A DNA stretch of 48,505 nt from Chloroflexota bacterium (GCA_024277275.1 JAJRVO010000336.1:1-48505); one strand, 5' to 3'. Counted from the first letter of the stretch, positions 8,128 through 48,209 are shown. Made by a program: numbers and translations. Notes: generated by a model not told the origin, from the sequence alone.

Positions 8128-8186
8128 GGCTCTCCTGTGTTGTATTGAGAGTGAGAGGATTCGGTAATTCAACATAGCCGTAAAAA

Positions 8187-8262
8187 ACGACGAATGACGA
8201 ATGACGATGGACGAACGAAACGCCAGCACAAGATTTTTATCGTTCGTCATTCGTCGTTCGTC
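8187..8262. repeat. Heptamer-periodic palindrome, (GACGAAT)n arm / loop / complementary arm
   Basis: acgacgaatgacgaatgacgatggacgaacga ... tcgttcgtcattcgtcgttcgtc. Confidence 0.9.
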
Positions 8263-8322
8263 CGGTTGACGAAAACGGTCTAAATAATTATCGAGTCATC
8301 TTGTATTTATTTAATCTAGCAT

Positions 8323-8380
8323 AAAACGTAAAACGTGAAACGTGATTGTTTTTGACGTATGGCTCTCACGTTTCACGTTT
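8323..8380. repeat. Heptamer-periodic palindrome, (AAACGTG)n
   Basis: aaaacgtaaaacgtgaaacgtga ... tcacgtttcacgttt. Confidence 0.9.
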
Positions 8381-8403
8381 CATACATTACGCAAAATTAT
8401 AAG

Positions 8404-13089: not shown

Positions 13090-13160
13090 GGAAGTAGGGA
13101 GTAGGCAGTAAGAAGTAAGGGTTTTTCTCCCTACTCCCTACTCCTTACTGCATACTCCCC
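13090..13160. repeat. Heptamer-periodic palindrome, (GGAGTAG-like)n
   Basis: ggaagtagggagtaggcagtaagaagtaaggg tttttct ccctactccctactccttactgcatactcccc. Confidence 0.9.
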
Positions 13161-16100
13161 GATTTGGATATATAGGTGGCAACTTGAGCTAGCTAATACT
13201 TCTCGGTTAAAATCGCAATGCCCTCCCAGTCTGGGGGGACGCCGTACTCAATAAAGTTCTCTACTCGACGTAGATATAGTTGCGACGCTTTATCTTCTGG
13301 ATTAACGGTTAAGGCTTTTTGGAAATACTCTTTTGCCTGGGCAAATTCCTGGCTGTGGTAGTGAAGAAGCCCTCGTTCAAAATCGGTTTGGGTCTGGAGC
13401 TTAAGTTCCCTGATTTCTTCCGGCTCGCCATCCAGAATTTCAAAAACTGACACTGCTTCCTCTTTGCCTTTTACTTTTACTTTGTCAAGAAAGCGGAAAT
13501 TATAACTTATCGGATTATTAAGGCTGAACATCATTTCTCCGCTGACAATAATGGATGACCCGTAAACTTTGGTTAACCCTTCCAGCCGGGCCGCCAGGTT
13601 GACAGCGTCTGATATTACCGTGCCTTCCATCCTTTCCGCTTCGCCAATAGTGCCTAACATAACCCGGCCTGTATGTAACCCTACGCCAATTGTAATGGGC
13701 TGATATCCGGAGTTAATCCGGTCAACATTGTAAATGGCTACGGCTTGCTGCATGGCAATGGCCGTTTTAATTGCGTCGTTGGTTTGACCGGGAAACAGGG
13801 CCATAATGGCATCGCCCATGTACTTGTCGATAAAGCCGTTATTGTCTCGAATAATGGGGCTGACCCGTCTAAGGTATGAGTTGATAAAGTTGAAGTTTTC
13901 TTGCGGGGTCATCTGTTAGGACAAGTTGGTAAAAGAGCGGATGTCGGAAAAAAGAACCGTCATCTCTTGCTGTATTTGGTCGCCTAATTTAACCTGCATA
14001 ATGCTGTCTTTGTTGAGCAGGTTCAGAATTTCGGGGGGCACAAAACGGCTGTAGGCTTTGGTCAACTCTACTTGATGGGCATAGAAACGGGCGTTCTCAA
14101 TAGAAATAGCGGCTTGAGAAGATAACAGGTTCAGCACTTCCAAGCGGTCGGGGGTAAAAGCCCCGGTGGTGAGGTTGTTTTCCAGGTAGAGGATGCCAAT
14201 GAGTTTGCCCTGGTTTAGCAGCGATATACACAATACCGATTTGGGTTGGGCAGCCACAACATACCTGTCGTGAGTAAATTGACCCTCGTGGGTCGCGTCG
14301 TTTAAAACCACGTTTTGCCGGCTGTGAATGACGTAATTAATAACGGCTCCCGGCAATATGGGCCTTCGCCCGTAGGCCGCCACCGTAAGCGGGATGGCTT
14401 GCAGGACAGTGACGTCATCCTTGCTGGCAGCCCCCGAGGCCTCAATTGACCAGGCTTCGCTTTCCTCCAGGAGCAAATACCCTATTTGCGCTCCTGCATT
14501 TTCAATAACAATTTCCATCATCTTTGATAGTAAGGTATTCAACACAATCTCGCTAGAGATAATCTGCGAGGCTTTGATGACGCTGGTTAAATCCAGGGCG
14601 CTTAGAGCGCCCGATGTGCTGTGAATGGTGGGCGTAAGGGGTATTGTGGATTTGGCCTCGAGACGCCGTGGCCGGATTTTGGCAAATAACTCCGGGTAAT
14701 GTGTCTCTAATTGCTTGATTTTACCGGAGGCTCCCCAACGCAAGTAAGCATAGTGAGCCTTATGCAGGTAAACGTGGGCTATCTCTGCTTGCCCTTTAGT
14801 TAGATAAAATCTTCCCGCCAGTTCGTAGGCCAGGGCTTCTTCATTTAAATATTGGTTTTCTTGAGCCAGAGCAATGGCCTGATCATAATATTCTCTGGCC
14901 GCCCCATCGGCGCCCAGAGCGCGGGCGTATTCGGCTTCTACCAGATAGAATTTGTGCAGGTGATTTACAGGGGCATGGTTGGCCCATTCCTTTAGCTTTT
15001 GCTGATTAGCGGTTACTTTGTCCAGTATAGGCTCTTGCTCAATTTGTTTCTCTTCAGGGGACTCTATGAGCAAAGCCAGATGAGCCAACGAGTCGTAAAA
15101 ATGGAAAACAGGCACAGATAGCATCGCGGTTACATCGTCCAAATGCTTTGCCGCTGCGGTTGCGTTTTTAACCGCTTGCGGGTATTCCTGAAACAGGTAA
15201 CAGAGGATAAGCCGGTTGAAATGTATGTCGAAAGCTATGTTGTTAGTTGTCTCATCAACCTGCAACGAATCGGGTTTTTCCTCATCGTGTAGGTTATTGC
15301 CTAAGCGGTACGGATGTTCAGTGTCCTCCATTAAATTTAAGACAACCTGCCGATAGATTTCATTGATTCGCAGGACTCGTTCTTGTTTAAGCTGTTTAAT
15401 CGACTCGCTGTGCAAGGCCATCTCCGGGGCAAGCTCGACCAGTTCCCGACCGGCCAGATAGGAATGAAGGCCATAGACAAAGATAGAACGAGCGGCATAT
15501 TCCAGGTCGCCGGTTTCCAGGGCGCTGCGGTATGCTTCTAACAGCGGGCTTAAGCTTGCTCTTACGGGTTTCTTCCAGTGGCTAACAAAGGTGTTGAGGC
15601 CAAACAGCATCTTGGCTTTAAGTTGTTGGGCATTTAACTGTTTTAGCAGCCTTAAAGCCGTTTGCCCAAATTGATGGCCGGCATCAATGTCGCCAATGCG
15701 CCCGCAGAGAATTAAACCATAAGTGACATACGCCAGGGTAGACTCGGGCGCATTGCCGTATTTTACTGAGAAGGCAACCATTTTAAATACAATTAGCGGT
15801 AACAGTCCGGGAATACCAAAAGAGGCCGCCGAGGAGACAATCGACAGGATTCGCATTGCGGCTAATCTGTAAGGGTCTGTCATTTCCGGCAGGGCTACTA
15901 AATCCTCCGGCTGTCTTCCGGCCAAAGCCAACTCTATTTCTTGTAGAGCCAGAGCAATATTCTCTTGACTCGGCTCCCGTGGAAAGCGTACCGCTAACAT
16001 TCTTAGTACGGGTAAGGCTGTGTCTATCACGTCTTGTAATTGATCCTGGGCAATGTAAGCCAGCATTTTTACTTCATAGACCTTTACTTTGTCCAGCAAG

Positions 16101-17637
16101 GTCTTGGCTTGTTGCAGCACAATTTCTGCAAAGCGCTCCATTTGCTCAAAGTCGGCGCATAGATAGGCTGTTTCCATTGCTTCTATATATAACAGCAACG
16201 ACAGGTTATATTGTCGCTCCCAACTGCCTGCTTCTTCACTGCCCTTGATGAGGGGGGATTGTGAGAGGTTTAAAAGTTCAATGCCGATATTCAGGTAATT
16301 TAATGCGGGTTGGTATGCCGCCGATGCTTTAGCTCTTTGACCCGCCAGCAGATTTAATTCTGCCAGTTCGTCCCATTCTGATTGCTCAACGCATATTACC
16401 CGGCCTAGATTTAGCTGGTTGACCAGATCAAATATTCGGTTTGCCCGCTTGTCTGGTAGCGTATGCCGTAGCAGCAGTTGCCCCACCTGCCAGTGGACAA
16501 TCTGTTTGTCTGTGTCGGAAATAAGCGAGTAAATGGCTTGCTGAACCCGGTCGTGGGCAAACTTGTATTCTGCCATAACCACGCTTTGATCATCTAATTC
16601 CGGGAATGGGTACGTTCTGTTTAAAGGCAGGATTAAGCATTCTGTGGTTGCCTCCCACAAATCAGCGGCTACATTTGCCGGGGGCTTTTGTGAGACAACT
16701 GCCAGAGTCTCTAAATCAAATTGATGGCCGATACAAGCGGCCAGTTTTAATGCTTCTTGGGCGTCTGGCGGTAACTTTTGCACTTTGGCGGCCATCAACT
16801 CAACCACATTATCTGTAATTTCCCGGGTTTGAATTTGCGCCAAATCCCATTGCCAGCTTCCGCGCTGATAGTCAAAGCTAATGAGCTTCTCAACATAGAG
16901 CGATTTCAAAAACTCGCCTATAAAGAAGGGATTGCCCCCCGTTTTGTCCAGCACTAATTCTGCCAGGGGAGCGACCTGTTCCGGCTGGTCATGGAGTGTG
17001 TCGGCCACTAGCCGGCTAACGTGGGATAAGGTCAACGGTGATAATTCGATGTTCTTAATTATTGCGCCGGTCTTTTTGATATCATCCAGTGTTAACAGCA
17101 ACGGATGAAGCCCACTCACTTCGTTATCTCGATAGGCTCCTATTAAAAACAGGCAGATGTTGTCGGAAGCAGTGGTCATTAACCGCTCAATTAACTTCAG
17201 CGATGCTTCGTCTGCCCACTGTAAATCATCAAGAAAAATGACCAGGGGGTGTTTGGGCCGGGCAAAGACCTTGATGAAGTTTTGAAACGCTAAATTAAAA
17301 CGATTTTGGGCCTCTACCGGCCTTAATTCGGGCGCTGGGGGTTGTGGGCCGATGATTAATTCAATTTCGGGAATGACCTCAAGAATTACCTGCCCATTTG
17401 GTCCAAGTGCGGCCAGTAGTTTTTGTTGCCAGGCGGCAATTTGGGTTTCGTTTTCGGTTAACAATTGCTGCGCCAGCGAGTGAAAGGCCTGAATAAGCGA
17501 AACATAAGGAACATTGCGCTGAAACTGGTCAAACTTGCCGGAGATAAAATAGCCGCCTTGACGGGCTACTTGCTTGTGCAATTCGTGAACCAGGGCCGAT
17601 TTGCCAATGCCTACGTATCCGGTTACCAAAGCCATGT

Positions 17638-17711
17638 CGATTTTCGATTTTCGATTTTCGATTTTGGATTGAGAGGAAACTTCCCTCCCTTTGGGGGGGA
17701 TTGAGGGGGGG
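17638..17711. repeat. (CGATTTT)x4 heptamer run plus a G-rich GATTGAG(A/G)GG repeat, inside the kinase/STAND CDS
   Basis: cgattttcgattttcgattttcgattttggattgagagg...gggggggattgaggggggg, translated as PPSIPPKGREVSSQSKIENRKSKID. Confidence 0.85.
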
Positions 17712-18250
17712 CTAATTTGCTCAAAAGCTGTTGACAAGATTTCAAGCTCTTGCTCTCGTCCGTACAACTTTTGCGGAATTTGTAACCTGTCAGAGATATC
17801 TTGTTGACCTAGTGGAAAAAGGTCGACTCGTTCCAGGGTTTGCCATTGCTGTAAACACGCTTCTAAATCTGCTTTTAGTCCATACGCCGATTGGTAACGC
17901 TCTTCTGCATTTTTGGACATCAGCTTCATTACTATGTCCGAGAGGGCGGGGGGCAGGGCGGGTTTGACCTTATGTGGCGATGTGGGCTGTTTGGCGATGT
18001 GGCTGTGTACCAGTTCCAGCGGGTCGTTGCTTTCAAACGGCAGTTGTCCGGTTAGTAGTTCATAAAAGGTCACGCCCAGCGAATAAAAATCTGCCCGATA
18101 ATCCACCGCCCGGTTCATTCGTCCGGTTTGCTCCGGTGAAATGTAGGCCAGCGTGCCTTTCAATACGCTTGGAGTATGCAGGGTTGGATTCTCGTGCGAG
18201 AATACCGTGGAAATGCCGAAGTCAATGATTTTGACCGGCCACTGCTGATT

Positions 18251-18329
18251 TACGATTTTAGATTTATGATTTGCGATTTCTGATGGTTGGTCCAAACCGG
18301 AAATCGTAAATCCAAAATCTGAAATCGTG
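18251..18329. repeat. Heptamer-periodic palindrome (NNGATTT)x4 / loop / (AAATCNN)x4, inside the kinase catalytic domain CDS
   Basis: tacgattttagatttatgatttgcgatttc ... ggaaatcgtaaatccaaaatctgaaatcgtg, translated in frame as DTISDFGFTISGLDQPSEIANHKSKIV. Confidence 0.9.
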
Positions 18330-19211
18330 TCTGGGGGAATAATTACAATATTTGACGGGTTAAGGTCTTGGTGGATAACGTATCGCTGATGAATTTGCCC
18401 CACAATTTCTGTGACTCTGATGGTCAGGGATAAAAAATCAGCCAGGTTCAATTTGCCGGCTAATCCTAACTGCGCCAGAGATTTTCCGCCAAAATCCTCC
18501 AGCACTATCACCCACCGCTGCTGGTTTTTTTCTAAAGCTAAAGCTTTAACCACGCCTTCCAGGTCTAAGCTGCGGATGATTTCGTACTCGGTTTTAAGCC
18601 GGGCAATCTGCTCTGGCGAGGGGTAGGTCGCTTTTAAGGTTTTTAAAATAACCGGCTGGTTATCCGCCCGCTGGCGCCCGCGATAGATCAACGAGTTAGC
18701 GCTTTCGTGGATTAGATCGCCAAACTGATAACCTGAGGTTGTGATCATTGTTGCTCTGCTCATTGCTCACTCTAAAAAGACAAACCTTGCTCCTGGTGTA
18801 TAACAATTCCAAACAAAACCCAGACCTGATAGATTTTTGACATAATCTTAGCAAGTTGCTGTATTGCTATTGTAAATTGTGTTGAAATGGCCGGTTTTTT
18901 GGAAACCTGTCAGGTCTCATAGCCATGTTTGGAATTGTTGCCTATTGTATCACAAAAATCGACCAAAGACATTTTGGATAGCGCTAAACAAGCAGTGAGG
19001 GGTTCGGTGTCAGAAAATGAGTCTTTAACCAAAATAAAAACCCCGCCAATGCGGAGCTTTTGAATGAGAATAATGTAGCGTTTTAGGCTTTTACATCGAT
19101 AAAAAATTATCGAGCAAAGGTGCAGGGTGGTAAAGCTGCAAATTACAGAACCTGCTACCCTGCAACCTTGCCACCTTGTTTTCCAAGCGAAGTCTTGGAA
19201 AAATTGGATTC

Positions 19212-21246: not shown

Positions 21247-21412
21247 TGATCAGTAATCGGTGATCAGTAATCGGTAGTCAGTAATCAGTAATCGGTAGTC
21301 AGTAATCAGTAATCGGTAGTCAGTAATCAGTAATCGGTAGTCAGTAATCAGTAATCGGTAGTCAGTAATCAGTAATTGTAGTCAACTGATCACTGGTCAC
21401 TGGTTACTGATT
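21247..21412. repeat. Tandem 14/21-bp units built from AGTAATC-type heptamers, with a complementary right arm
   Basis: (tgatcagtaatcgg)x2 and (tagtcagtaatcagtaatcgg)x4-5 are followed by caactgatcactggtcactggttactgattgcc. The stop codon and last codons of the upstream reductase gene lie within the right arm. Confidence 0.95.
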
Positions 21413-22378
21413 GCCGGTGTTTTGTGATTTTGTTTTTACATCTTCGCGCCAATAATCAAGGACGCGCCGCAGGCTGTCTTCAAACTTATAGATGGGTTTC
21501 CAGCCTGTTTGTTCGCGTAATTTGCTGTTGTTTGCGTAGATAATCGGTACATCAGAAGGGCGCATACGTTCCGGGTCCGGCTTAATACTAATCTTGATAT
21601 CGGTATAGCTGAGCAATACCTCCAACAAATATTCAATGGAGTAGGCTTTGCCTGTGCCTACGTTGTAAGCTTCGCCCGGCGCGCCATGCTCAACCAGTAA
21701 CGCATAGGCTCGCATAACGTCGATGACATCGGTGAAGTCTCGCTGCGCTTCCAGATTGCCCACCCAAATTACAGGCTCGCTCAACCCGGCTTCAATCTCG
21801 GCGATTTGTTTGGCAAAAGAGGCCGCGACAAAAAATGGGCTTTGGCGCGGCCCAATATGGTTAAAAGCCCGGATGCGTAATACATCAAGGCCATGGCTTA
21901 AATGATATTGCAAGGCCAAAACGTCTTGGGTGGCCTTGCTCACCCCATAGGGGTTATGGGGGCGGAGCGGAGTGTCTTCTTTTACCGGAAGGCGGTCTTT
22001 TTGCACAAGGCCGTAAACCTCGTTAGAGGCCACAATTAACAGGCGCGTCTTAGATTTTTGCCTGACCATAGTCTGCAAAATATTAAGTTGCGGCCGAATA
22101 TTGTTTTCCATTGTTGCCCACGGATCAACCCAGGCCGTAGGCACAAACGCCTGTCCGGCCAGGTGATAAATGGCATCGGGTTGACACTGGTTTAACACTT
22201 GATCAACTACGTCTGCGTCACACAGATTAGCAATAACCGGCGTTATCATTTGGCTTAAGTGGTCTAAACCATATCCCTTATCATGGGCCACTCCAAATAC
22301 TTCATCATCGCGATCTAATAAAATTTGAGCCAGGTGTCCTCCCGCAAAACCAGTGATGCCTGTAATTAATGCCCGCAC
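21404..22378 (-). CDS. rmd: NAD-dependent epimerase/dehydratase, probable GDP-4-keto-6-deoxy-D-mannose reductase
   Basis: 324 aa with a GTG start. It has [21 protein letters not shown] (Rossmann) and a YGVSK catalytic YxxxK, and it lies immediately upstream of gmd in the same orientation. Confidence 0.65.
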   Translation of the reverse strand: MRALITGITGFAGGHLAQILLDRDDEVFGVAHDKGYGLDHLSQMITPVIANLCDADVVDQVLNQCQPDAIYHLAGQAFVPTAWVDPWATMENNIRPQLNILQTMVRQKSKTRLLIVASNEVYGLVQKDRLPVKEDTPLRPHNPYGVSKATQDVLALQYHLSHGLDVLRIRAFNHIGPRQSPFFVAASFAKQIAEIEAGLSEPVIWVGNLEAQRDFTDVIDVMRAYALLVEHGAPGEAYNVGTGKAYSIEYLLEVLLSYTDIKISIKPDPERMRPSDVPIIYANNSKLREQTGWKPIYKFEDSLRRVLDYWREDVKTKSQNTGNQ

Positions 22379-24668: not shown

Positions 24669-24816
24669 AGTAATCAGTAATCAGTAATCAGTAATCAGTA
24701 ATCAGTAATCAGTAATCAGTAATCAGTAATCAGTGACCAGTTTTTACTCGTTACTAATTACCAATTACCAATTACCAATTACCAATTACCAATTACTGAT
24801 TACTAATAACCGATAA
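24669..24816. repeat. Heptamer-periodic palindrome: (AGTAATC)x9 / loop / (ATTACCA)x5 and variants
   Basis: Direct reading. It fills the whole ftsL-ftsI spacer. Confidence 0.95.
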
Positions 24817-24825
24817 CCGAGACCG

Positions 24826-28287: not shown

Positions 28288-28351
28288 GATGATGAATGAT
28301 GCGTGATGCGTGATAAAACTGCTTTTCACGCATCACGCATCACTCATCACG
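28288..28351. repeat. Heptamer-periodic palindrome, (GATGCGT)n
   Basis: gatgatgaatgatgcgtgatgcgtga ... tcacgcatcacgcatcactcatcacg. Confidence 0.9.
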
Positions 28352-35475: not shown

Positions 35476-35569
35476 GGTAATTAGTAAATGGTAAATAGTA
35501 ATTAGCCCAAATTACTTAAGTGAAGCGGCTTACTAATTACCAATTACTATTTACTAATTACCAATTACC
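35476..35569. repeat. Heptamer-periodic palindrome (TAGTAAT/ATTACTA type)
   Basis: ggtaattagtaaatggtaaatagtaattag ... ttactaattaccaattactatttactaattaccaattacc. Confidence 0.9.
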
Positions 35570-39526: not shown

Positions 39527-39700
39527 TCAGTAATTAGTAATTAGTAAATAGTAAATAGTAGTCGGTAGCTGGTGGTTAGTAGCTGGTGGCTGGCGGTTAG
39601 TAGCTGGTAGCTGGTAGCTGGTGGTTAGTAGCAGGTGGTTGGTAGTGGCGAGTAGCGTCTGCTAACGACCAACAGCTATCAGCTACCAGCTGCCAGCTAA
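39527..39700. repeat. About 25 consecutive heptamer units (TAGTAAT drifting to TGGTAGC) with a complementary right arm
   Basis: cagtaat tagtaat tagtaaa tagtaaa tagtagt cggtagc tggtggt tagtagc ... accaaca gctatca gctacca gctgcca gcta. It begins directly after the ddl stop. Confidence 0.95.
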
Positions 39701-39713
39701 TAGGAAGTTAACT

Positions 39714-41128: not shown

Positions 41129-42352
41129 GTGGATCGCACTGTTGTTGCCTTAGACATAGGCACTACAAAAATCTGCACGCTAGTTGCCGAAGTCGGCCCT
41201 CCCCCGGAAGAGAGCTTGCGTGTTGTAGGTGTGGGTACTGTGCCTTCAAGGGGAATCCGTAAAGGGGTGGTGGTAAATGTCAACGAAGTTGCAGCCGCCA
41301 TTGTCGACTCGGTTCGCCTGGCGGAGCGTACCTCTGGATATGAAATTGCCAGCGCCTATGTTGGGTTAGCCGGAGCGCACATTAACGCCGTAAATAGCCG
41401 GGGCGTGGTAGCCATTAGCCGAGGCGAACGGGGTATCCGAACTGTAGATGTTGAAAGGGCTTTGGAATCTGCACGGGCCATCGATATTCCCCACAATCGG
41501 GAGATTCTGCATATTATCCCGCGCGGCTTTACCGTAGATGGCGACGACGGGGTACGCGACCCGGTTGGGATGCAAGGCTACCGGCTGGAGGTTGAAGCCC
41601 ATATTGTTACCGGAGCTACTTCGTCCATTAAAAACCTTATCAGGTGCGTGCAGAGTTGTGGGGTTCAAATTGACGCTTTGGTTTTGGAACCGTTGGCCTC
41701 TGGCGAAGCGGTTTTAACCGACATTTAGCGCGAGATGGGGGTAGTACTGGTTGATATCGGCGGCGGCACTACAGACATCGCCATATTTATAGAAGGCGCC
41801 ATTTGGCACGCCGTTGTTTTACCCACCGGCGGCGAACAATTGACCAACGATGTGGCCGTAGGCTTACGCACCCCCTACAACACGGCAGAAGATATTAAGA
41901 TTAAATACGGGCACGCCCTGCCCCAGGCCGTAATGCTTGAAGAGATTGTTAAGGCCGAAGTGTTTGGCGAAGAAGGTCAACAGCAAATCCCTCGCCAGTT
42001 TTTGGCAGAAATTGTGGGAGCGCGCGCCGAAGAGATTTTTGAGCTGGTCTTAAAAGAGATTAAGCGGAGCGGGTACGATGGACTTTTGCCGGCAGGCATT
42101 GTTTTGTGCGGAGGCACCGCCGAATTACCCGGTATCCGCGATTTGGCCCGCGATGTTATGGGGCTACCGGCCCGTATCGGCGAGCCGCAAAATTTGCGCG
42201 GGTTGGTCGACACGCTACACAGCCCGGCTTTTGCTACCACCGTGGGGTTATTAGAATGGGGCGTAATGCACGACTTGCCCAAACCGGTTCAGCAATCCGC
42301 AAACCACAGTTTGAAGGTGCCGACTTGGTTAAAAGCGTTTTTGCCGGGGTAA
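41129..42352 (+). pseudogene. ftsA: Cell division protein FtsA, interrupted by an in-frame TAG at 41726-41728
   Basis: A GTG start is preceded by GGGGAGGAGG. It reads VALDIGTTKICTLVAE...LEPLASGEAVLTDI, then TAG, then in the same frame REMGVVLVDIGGGTTDIAIF...VLCGGTAELPGI. Together these make one actin-fold FtsA of about 407 codons. Confidence 0.9.
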
Positions 42353-42446
42353 TTGCCGGTAATCAGTAACCGGTAATTAGTAATCAGTAATTAGTGAATA
42401 GTTGACTACAATTACCAATTACTAATTACTAATTACTGGTTACTAG
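42348..42446. repeat. Heptamer-periodic palindrome (CAGTAAT/ATTACTA type) starting at the ftsA stop codon
   Basis: ggtaattgccggtaatcagtaaccggtaattagtaatcagtaattagtgaatag ... attaccaattactaattactaattactggttactag. Confidence 0.9.
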
Positions 42447-46109: not shown

Positions 46110-46285
46110 GTTGTTTTTTAGCATAGTGAGGTGGTTTGTGGGGCGGTGCAAGTATTGACGCAGGGAGCTACCACTTTGGTCGAGGCGTTTGCCGGCGGGG
46201 TTGGAGCCAGCTTGGCGGGGGGCGGATAGCTTTAGATTTTAGGCGTTTATTATGCACACATCGACAGTTTTTTATCGATAATTTT

Positions 46286-46378
46286 GAATAGTGAATTGGG
46301 AATAATGAATTGTGAACGGCTTGGTAGCAGTAAATTTTCATTAACAATTCACAATTGGCAATTCACAATTGGCAATTG
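46286..46378. repeat. Periodic palindrome (GAATTGTGA/TCACAATT type)
   Basis: gaatagtgaattgggaataatgaattgtgaa ... ttcattaacaattcacaattggcaattcacaattggcaattg. Confidence 0.9.
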
Positions 46379-48133: not shown

Positions 48134-48193
48134 TGTCATTGGTCATTTGTCCTTCGTCATTTGCAAATGACAAGTGACCAATGACCAATGACA
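48134..48193. repeat. Heptamer-periodic palindrome (GTCATTG / TGACCAA type)
   Basis: gtgtcattggtcatttgtccttcgtcatttg caaatgacaagtgaccaatgaccaatgac, with almost no loop. Confidence 0.9.
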
Positions 48194-48209
48194 AAAGATT
48201 TGATTTTCT

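Follow-up and report, generated by a model that had tools for sequence, protein, structure and literature searches.

A palindrome built of tandem heptamers was found inside the catalytic core of a protein kinase domain, where it is translated in frame as residues 145-174 of a large signalling protein (DTISDFGFTISGLDQPSEIANHKSKIVNQQ). The palindrome is probably, though by no means surely, a heptamer hairpin which arose or grew locally and in frame, and which is translated as a disordered passenger in a kinase loop that was already variable. It was identified in a window of 48.5 kb, by which we mean the whole stretch of DNA that was analysed.

Repeat search, pattern count and folding delimited the palindrome to positions 18247-18328, on the minus strand. 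Read along the coding strand, it starts with arm 1 (18294-18328), made of five NNGATTT heptamers (ACGATTT CAGATTT TGGATTT ACGATTT CCGGTTT), goes on with a centre of 14 nt (18280-18293) and ends with arm 2 (18247-18279), in which five AAATCNN units follow one another; each arm comprises four clean heptamers and an imperfect one. An earlier note on this DNA had recognized the NNGATTT heptamers, the loop and the complementary units, but had placed them at 18251-18329 and had counted four units per arm, where five are present if the imperfect one is included. With 6-nt seeds, the inverted arms (18247-18279 and 18294-18326) were 33 nt long each, 82% complementary and 14 nt apart, and another register paired 18252-18280 with 18300-18328 (29 nt, 86% complementary). 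The palindrome was found with such short seeds only and was missed by an 8-nt-seed scan of the whole window, as seeds of that length are interrupted by the variable NN positions; five of the six mismatches between the arms fall at these positions. TRF reported a period of 7 with 5.6 copies and 71% matches at that period, the units being heterogeneous. A search of the 48.5-kb window with the pattern GATTTNNGATTTNNGATTT, allowing at most one mismatch, returned nine matches where 0.02 were expected, all nine in the kinase gene.

Folding was assessed against dinucleotide shuffles, which gave z-scores of -5.5 for the sense RNA and -7.4 for the + strand DNA, none of 200 shuffles folding as well; the sense-strand hairpin has an energy of -27.7 kcal/mol. 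These z-scores were used in place of a ranking of 100-nt windows by raw folding energy, which was dropped as a measure of uniqueness since the palindrome came only about 30th in it, GC-rich coding windows being equally strong. No promoter-like or terminator-like sites were detected between 17500 and 18900. Neither terminal inverted repeats apart from the arms nor a target-site duplication were seen at the palindrome, the flanks of which share just a trivial CAG.

Translation of the palindrome yields (TISDFGF)(TISGLDQ)PS(EIANHKS)(KIVNQQ..), that is, two pairs of seven-residue repeats, which arise because three heptamers make up 21 nt. The reading frame stays open through the whole element, as previously claimed, and the frame in use is the only open one of the six. 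Twelve intergenic hairpins of the window have 4 open frames out of 72, with none open in eight of the 12. That just the frame in use is open would be expected if a gene under constraint could retain only versions that are free of stops and add a net length divisible by three. From a reading of the sequence, an arm 2 that was the perfect complement of arm 1 would bring in an in-frame TGA.

The peptide is flanked by HQDLNPSNIVI (residues 131-141) and KIIDFGIS (residues 178-185), in agreement with the position between the catalytic loop and the DFG motif given in the earlier note. The corresponding features, all on the minus strand, are the catalytic loop HQDLNPSN (residues 131-138, 18350-18373; family consensus HKDINPSN, with K132Q in the window), the whole beta7-beta8 linker (residues 142-177, IPPD...QQWPV, 36 amino acids, 18233-18340) and the DFG motif (18215-18223), of which D181 and F182 are invariant and G183 is nearly so. 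In an alignment with PknB of M. tuberculosis, residue 142 of the query stands opposite residue 150 and residue 176 opposite residue 154, so that about 30 residues take the place of the three-residue beta7-beta8 turn of PknB; the assertion that the repeat is translated as about 30 extra residues (145-174) is thereby borne out. N138 and D181 are separated by 42 residues, whereas PknB and the norm of the family have 13 there, and the short turn of Hanks-type kinases is missing.

The domain matched Pkinase (PF00069) with an E-value of 2.1e-30 over residues 22-291, corresponding to positions 11-253 of the 263 of the profile and to both lobes, and the match of PknB had an E-value of 1.7e-25. The catalytic residues K41 (beta3), D133, N138 and D181 are present and are invariant or nearly so in the family, the invariants of the kinase domain being H131, N135, N138 and D181. 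Throughout the kinase-AAA_16-GAF family, the catalytic loop reads H-K-D-I-N-P-x-N, with an Asn replacing the Lys of HRDxKxxN, and no obvious GxGxxG loop is seen. With this Asn and no evident GxGxxG, kinase activity of the domain cannot be taken as assured from its sequence. AlphaFold modelling of residues 1-310 with 55 homologues predicted a normal kinase fold with a mean pLDDT of 78.8. The insert region was modelled as a short helix (144-150) followed by a segment with pLDDT below 50 (151-168). The insert is thus probably a mostly disordered surface loop; modelling had been proposed as a check on this point, and most of the insert came out as a low-confidence loop.

The length of the linker was counted between HxDxNxxNxxx and xxxDFG in those homologues that match this motif pattern. 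Seven residues were found in 90 of 99 database proteins, in all 78 loci from representative genomes and in 75 of 79 metagenome loci (about 240 of 256 in all), as compared with 36 in the window, which agrees with the suggestion of an insertion relative to the family. The six closest orthologues, found by the search at 54-63% identity (full-length alignment gave 64-66% for the nearest four), have loops of 18, 18, 18, 18, 34 and 20 residues at the same site. These six loops start with xPx (P at position 2) and end with W-x-V, as in the window, and are otherwise of unrelated sequence; loops of 16-18 residues with the same W-x-V end were also observed in the more distant homologues P0043, P0045 and P0070. 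The earlier note had held that a homologous loop of similar length and without palindromy in orthologues from distant taxa would speak against its claim, and the six orthologues, with shared anchors and 18-34 residues, go part of the way towards such a loop. Neither heptamer periodicity nor a significant hairpin was detected in the loop DNA of these six orthologues (z-scores of -1.9 to +0.35, against -4.0 for the equivalent span of the window), and the idea that their long loops are decayed palindromes was rejected on both counts.

Compared with the four sister orthologues, the window protein has no deletions over 1856 codons, and the internal segments longer than one residue that it has gained are limited to residues 150-152 and 159-173 (18 amino acids) and to residues 352-371 (20 amino acids). 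Both of these window-specific gains carry GATTT/AAATC heptamers, which fits the proposal that repeat proliferation creates peptide segments here. At the beta7-beta8 loop the net gain amounts to 18 residues relative to the sisters and to 29 relative to the family norm. On the basis of these alignments, the palindrome lengthened a loop which in this subclade was long and variable already. The ends of the loop remain sister-like in the window (PxD...D and EIxN...QWPV), a likeness which rests on few residues. When the DNA was aligned, the extra 54 nt fell mostly in arm 1, and arm 2 aligned with the loop of the sisters; this hints, and no more, that arm 2 may have grown from native sequence and that arm 1 may be an inverted copy of it. 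A peptide recurring elsewhere was also looked for, and none of 5.8 billion proteins shared three 5-residue words with the 41-residue insert query.

A second in-frame array, AAATCGA repeated 4.9 times on the coding strand with 96% matches, was found at 17637-17670 on the minus strand, about 580 nt downstream of the palindrome and with the same AAATC/GATTT heptamer core. It encodes QSKIENRKSKID, just before the P-loop of the AAA_16 domain, and sits inside the 20-residue segment (352-371) that the sister orthologues lack. Were one unit gained or lost, the reading frame would shift. In 163 homologous CDSs (545 kb), 13 intragenic heptamer arrays were counted, six of them lying 20-63 residues before the P-loop and none in the beta7-beta8 turn. 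At least six homologues have arrays in the kinase/AAA_16 linker, including L012, L020, L072 (twice), L104 and L131, and also L001, with an AAATC-type array of 14-nt period. In the distant homologues L001 and L012, the AAATC-type arrays occupy the same spot of the linker and abut the native codons for ...IEMMLV. As judged from these sequences, the linker between kinase and AAA_16 is a hot spot for heptamer arrays in the homologues, and the data suggest that such arrays may have been seeded repeatedly from a native proto-repeat.

Heptamer arrays are by no means restricted to the kinase gene. Under stringent settings, 20 arrays of period 7 were detected in the window, as opposed to 0-2 for periods 5, 6 and 8-11. 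At no fewer than 12 intergenic sites, and in nearly every intergenic gap, an array has its inverted counterpart about 10-60 nt further on, which results in a long hairpin; such hairpins were located at 8185-8262, 8317-8382, 13090-13161, 21249-21420, 24669-24825, 28290-28349, 35476-35569, 39529-39705, 42356-42445, 46280-46378 and 48134-48204. The only intragenic arrays of the window are the two of the kinase gene and a trace of 2.9 copies near the end of the DivIC gene. The description of the palindrome as a repeat of intergenic type lying within a CDS was therefore apt, since the other hairpins and arrays, the DivIC trace apart, are intergenic and of the same build: the palindrome shares the tandem 7-nt arms and the layout of array and inverted array with the intergenic hairpins, and departs from them in its location. 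Each hairpin site has its own heptamer and its own centre (for example AGTAATC, GACGAAT, AAACGTG, TGATGCG, CAGCTAC and AATGACC). No second palindrome with a GATTT core was found in the 48.5-kb window, where the other GATTT-core repeat is the direct array of the same gene. By these comparisons the palindrome belongs to a class defined by structure, that of the heptamer hairpins, and is no copy from a sequence family.

A complete mraZ-to-ftsZ cluster for division and cell wall is present in the window, the GC content of which is about 0.50. Its RsmH protein is 71-76% identical to proteins of Anaerolineae, Anaerolineales and Chloroflexota, with best matches of 79-80%, and the host looks like a member of the Chloroflexota (class Anaerolineae) from its sequence. 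A cyanobacterial host, which STRR-like heptamers and cyanobacterial homologues could have indicated, was rejected in view of the absence of HIP1 (0 copies) and of the RsmH matches to Anaerolineae and Chloroflexota. Three relatives (L167-L169) share the mraZ-ftsZ cluster as well as the DUF2085 and GDP-mannose dehydratase genes. In these syntenic relatives 0-3 heptamer arrays, some with the units of the window, were present per ~20 kb, that is, 0-0.14 per kb versus about 0.4 per kb in the window; the heptamer repeats thus belong to the lineage and have an unusually high density in the window. The relatives have an ABC ATPase and a MacB/FtsX permease after DUF2085, at the place which the kinase gene occupies in the window: between 13193 and 19257 the window contains a DUF2085 gene (76% identical), a 115-residue ORF that belongs to no family, the kinase gene and an FtsX permease gene (28-31% identical), and the ABC ATPase present at this break in L167-L169 is absent. 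This break in synteny suggests an acquisition or a rearrangement.

The host gene spans 13193-18763 on the minus strand and comprises 1856 codons including one in-frame TAA, the ORF down to this first stop being of 1615 codons (13916-18763, minus strand). The Pfam domains of the protein are Pkinase (22-291), AAA_16 (376-536), a helical/TPR region, GAF (1408-1555) and Guanylate_cyc; after the TAA, an ORF in the same frame encodes the rest of Guanylate_cyc and TPR. The host protein shares this full architecture with the kinase-AAA_16-GAF-output proteins (Pkinase, AAA_16, GAF and Guanylate_cyc, HisKA or SpoIIE), which are described in cyanobacteria as HstK-like, and also has the PEQTGRMN motif of the family. 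It differs from the family in the 36-residue beta7-beta8 linker, the 20-residue linker segment, K132Q and the in-frame stop. Close homologues of this mostly cyanobacterial protein were also seen in Chloroflexaceae, in Beggiatoaceae (Parabeggiatoa, Beggiatoa and Thiomargarita) and in the myxobacterium Pyxidicoccus (loci L002, L003, L009, L017, L023, L033, L039, L050, L067 and L073), a spread which would fit an exchange of genes between filamentous bacteria.

The in-frame TAA (13916-13918, minus strand) stands where the cyclase motif LSEQMTPQE has its conserved Glu (GAA), giving LS*QMTPQE, and corresponds to a single G-to-T change. A like-for-like change from Glu to TAG, again G to T on the coding strand, was found in ftsA at 41726-41728, where it splits the gene into two ORFs (LTDI*REMGV). 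Recoding of stop codons was rejected as an explanation of the in-frame TAA and TAG, since all three stops serve as ordinary terminators in the window (TAA 15, TAG 9 and TGA 6 of 30 ORFs). For the TAA at 13916-13918 there are three candidate causes: a genuine nonsense mutation, a variant within the population or an error in the sequence. Apart from this single stop, no frameshift was detected in the 1856 codons and both repeat segments keep the frame. Only three deviations were counted at 323 near-invariant columns (K132Q, L188F and T400A), fewer than in any sister. The gene was treated as intact or only just broken. With an in-frame TAA the gene may be newly dead, and to say that the insert is tolerated by selection is then less meaningful.

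The short tandemly repeated repetitive sequences (STRRs) of heterocystous or filamentous cyanobacteria have the units CCCCAGT, TTGGTCA or CAACAGT, and Vioque in 1997 reportedly located STRRs inside the RNase P RNA gene. Heptamer repeats are known from Beggiatoaceae (TAACTGA; MacGregor 2015, PMC4679880) and from Nostoc (GGGGA(C/T)T; Rehm 2015, PMC4692102), and TAACTGA repeats occur within ORFs too, where they are translated as seven-residue repeats (PMC4679880). The heptamers of the window resemble the STRR and TAACTGA ones in their 7-nt tandem units, in the excess of period 7 and in being overwhelmingly intergenic, with copies occasionally in genes. Unlike STRRs, they occur in a Chloroflexota/Anaerolineae-like host without HIP1 and have other units, which vary by site. 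The repeats of the TAACTGA sets are arranged directly, apart from one indirect case (PMC4679880), whereas in the window an array is mostly combined with an inverted array into a long hairpin; moreover, in contrast to heptamers found in hypothetical proteins or at gene ends, the palindrome lies within the catalytic domain of a conserved enzyme. Our search of the literature retrieved no description of heptamer hairpins in Anaerolineae or Chloroflexota. Among translated repeats of other kinds, Borg repeats are of local and recent origin and common between genes, and in ORFs selection keeps them in frame, where they yield disordered peptide repeats (Schoelmerich 2023, PMC9879509). They are direct only and are reported to make perfect amino-acid repeats, as opposed to the 7-nt palindromic units of a bacterial chromosome described here, in which it takes three heptamers to make one seven-residue repeat.

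In the explanation that we prefer, the arrays would have grown by replication slippage from short proto-repeats, and the inverted arm would have been produced by intramolecular template switching or by hairpin-templated copying. Selection would have kept only a version with a net length that is a multiple of three and with NN positions free of stops. The insert peptide itself may be without a dedicated function, and the sense-strand hairpin may slow translation but would not act as a terminator. Close relatives for an empty-site comparison were searched for, and none exceeded 57% identity over the N-terminal 400 residues among genome and metagenome contigs or 63% in the protein database; the timing and mechanism of the palindrome's origin are therefore inferred. 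The arrival of a mobile palindromic element, RPE- or MITE-like, in frame in a permissive loop appears unlikely by comparison. The hallmark of Rickettsia palindromic elements (RPEs) is an in-frame palindromic insert which becomes part of the translated host protein, at a site that the fold can accommodate (PMC10969869), and the likeness to these elements drawn in the earlier note holds for this outcome: a palindrome of ~82 nt, in frame and in a surface loop, is what is reported for RPEs, and in-frame translated palindromes at permissive sites are likewise shared with RPEs and intragenic MITEs (ERIC, BOX and Correia). It does not extend to membership. RPEs, about 150 bp long, form families in which sequence and encoded peptide are conserved and copies are numerous, whereas the palindrome has arms of tandem heptamers, no second copy in the window and no peptide that recurs among the 5.8 billion proteins searched. 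Similarly built hairpins are scattered over the window, and its 20 arrays in 48.5 kb, set against the few of the relatives, would point to something that spreads, but these hairpins share their build and not their sequence, each having its own heptamer and centre, and elsewhere in the window the GATTT core occurs only as the direct array of the kinase gene. Apart from its arms the palindrome has no terminal inverted repeats, nor has it a target-site duplication, and none of the genes identified in the window resembled a transposase. Local slippage with inverted duplication fits these data better than membership among the RPEs.

That the repeat is kept for a role of the nucleic acid, either as an mRNA hairpin (a ribosome pause or a processing mark) or as a slippage-prone on/off tract, seems quite improbable. 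The hairpin is significantly stable on both strands, and the second array, with 96% matches over 4.9 units, has the look of a contingency tract; a survey of the simple repeats behind phase variation in Haemophilus influenzae covers heptanucleotide ones too (PMC2651432). The palindrome, however, has heterogeneous units, which lower slippage, none of the homologues examined has a hairpin at the beta7-beta8 site, so that nothing is conserved, and no terminator-like or promoter-like signal accompanies it. We give as little credit to the view that the long loop has been adapted for regulation or docking in this kinase subclade and that the palindromy of its DNA is incidental. Loops of 16-34 residues with the conserved W-x-V end do occur in the six closest orthologues and in a few more distant homologues, but apart from these anchors they are unrelated, the 18 residues which the window has in addition coincide exactly with the periodic part, disorder is predicted for the loop, and the periodicity and complementarity of the DNA are highly non-random and absent from the orthologues. 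A decaying pseudogene in which repeats are a sign of erosion, or a palindrome created by misassembly, is very unlikely. The in-frame TAA in the cyclase domain, K132Q at an otherwise near-invariant residue of the catalytic loop and the position of the gene at a synteny break relative to three relatives would all suit decay; a single stop in 1856 codons, the lack of frameshifts, the preserved frame of both repeat segments and three deviations at 323 near-invariant columns do not, and the matching Glu-to-stop change in ftsA hints instead at a sequence error or a minor variant. As for an artefact, heptamer-periodic arms do not resemble those of chimeric reads, and the same build recurs at 12 or more other sites. 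The locally grown hairpin may also be part of something larger, namely a process actively spreading heptamer hairpins in an Anaerolineae lineage, which may be an unrecognised supplier of new protein segments at permissive loops and linkers. The near-perfect AAATCGA array and the palindrome would then make the kinase gene a phase-variable (frame-switching) or rapidly length-variable locus of a free-living environmental bacterium, but we regard this extension as unlikely.

The capture of repeats in frame is already known as a route to new protein segments, from Rickettsia palindromic elements and from Borg tandem repeats, and the present case is a tidy, not an unprecedented, one of repeat DNA adding a piece of protein. 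What it adds is a 7-nt unit, indivisible by three, which is palindromic and yet open in one frame, and which lies in the catalytic domain of a conserved enzyme. Two places where this signalling family tolerates such repeats emerge, the beta7-beta8 turn and the kinase/AAA_16 linker. For annotation, a Pkinase match that is split by a low-complexity stretch can reflect a repeat insertion and not a frameshift or a domain boundary. The abundance in an Anaerolineae-like genome of heptamer hairpins, a type of repeat tied to filamentous cyanobacteria and Beggiatoaceae, is arguably a more notable by-product of the analysis.

Some repeats of the window are of higher order and combine different heptamers. 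At 21249-21384, a unit of 21 nt (ATCGGTA GTCAGTA ATCAGTA) is repeated 6.5 times with 94% matches, and at 39556-39650, GTAGCTG and GTGGTTA units form a mixture of 14-, 21- and 28-nt periods. A repeat of another kind was observed at 1777-1909, where the 18-nt unit CCTTCCCTGTTGGGAAGA is present in 7.4 copies with 98% identity, each unit being self-complementary, and where the folding energy of a 100-nt segment is about -60 kcal/mol. This repeat is located in the 5' part of a PfkB-family ORF (670-1986), upstream of the Pfam match, and may be outside the real coding region.
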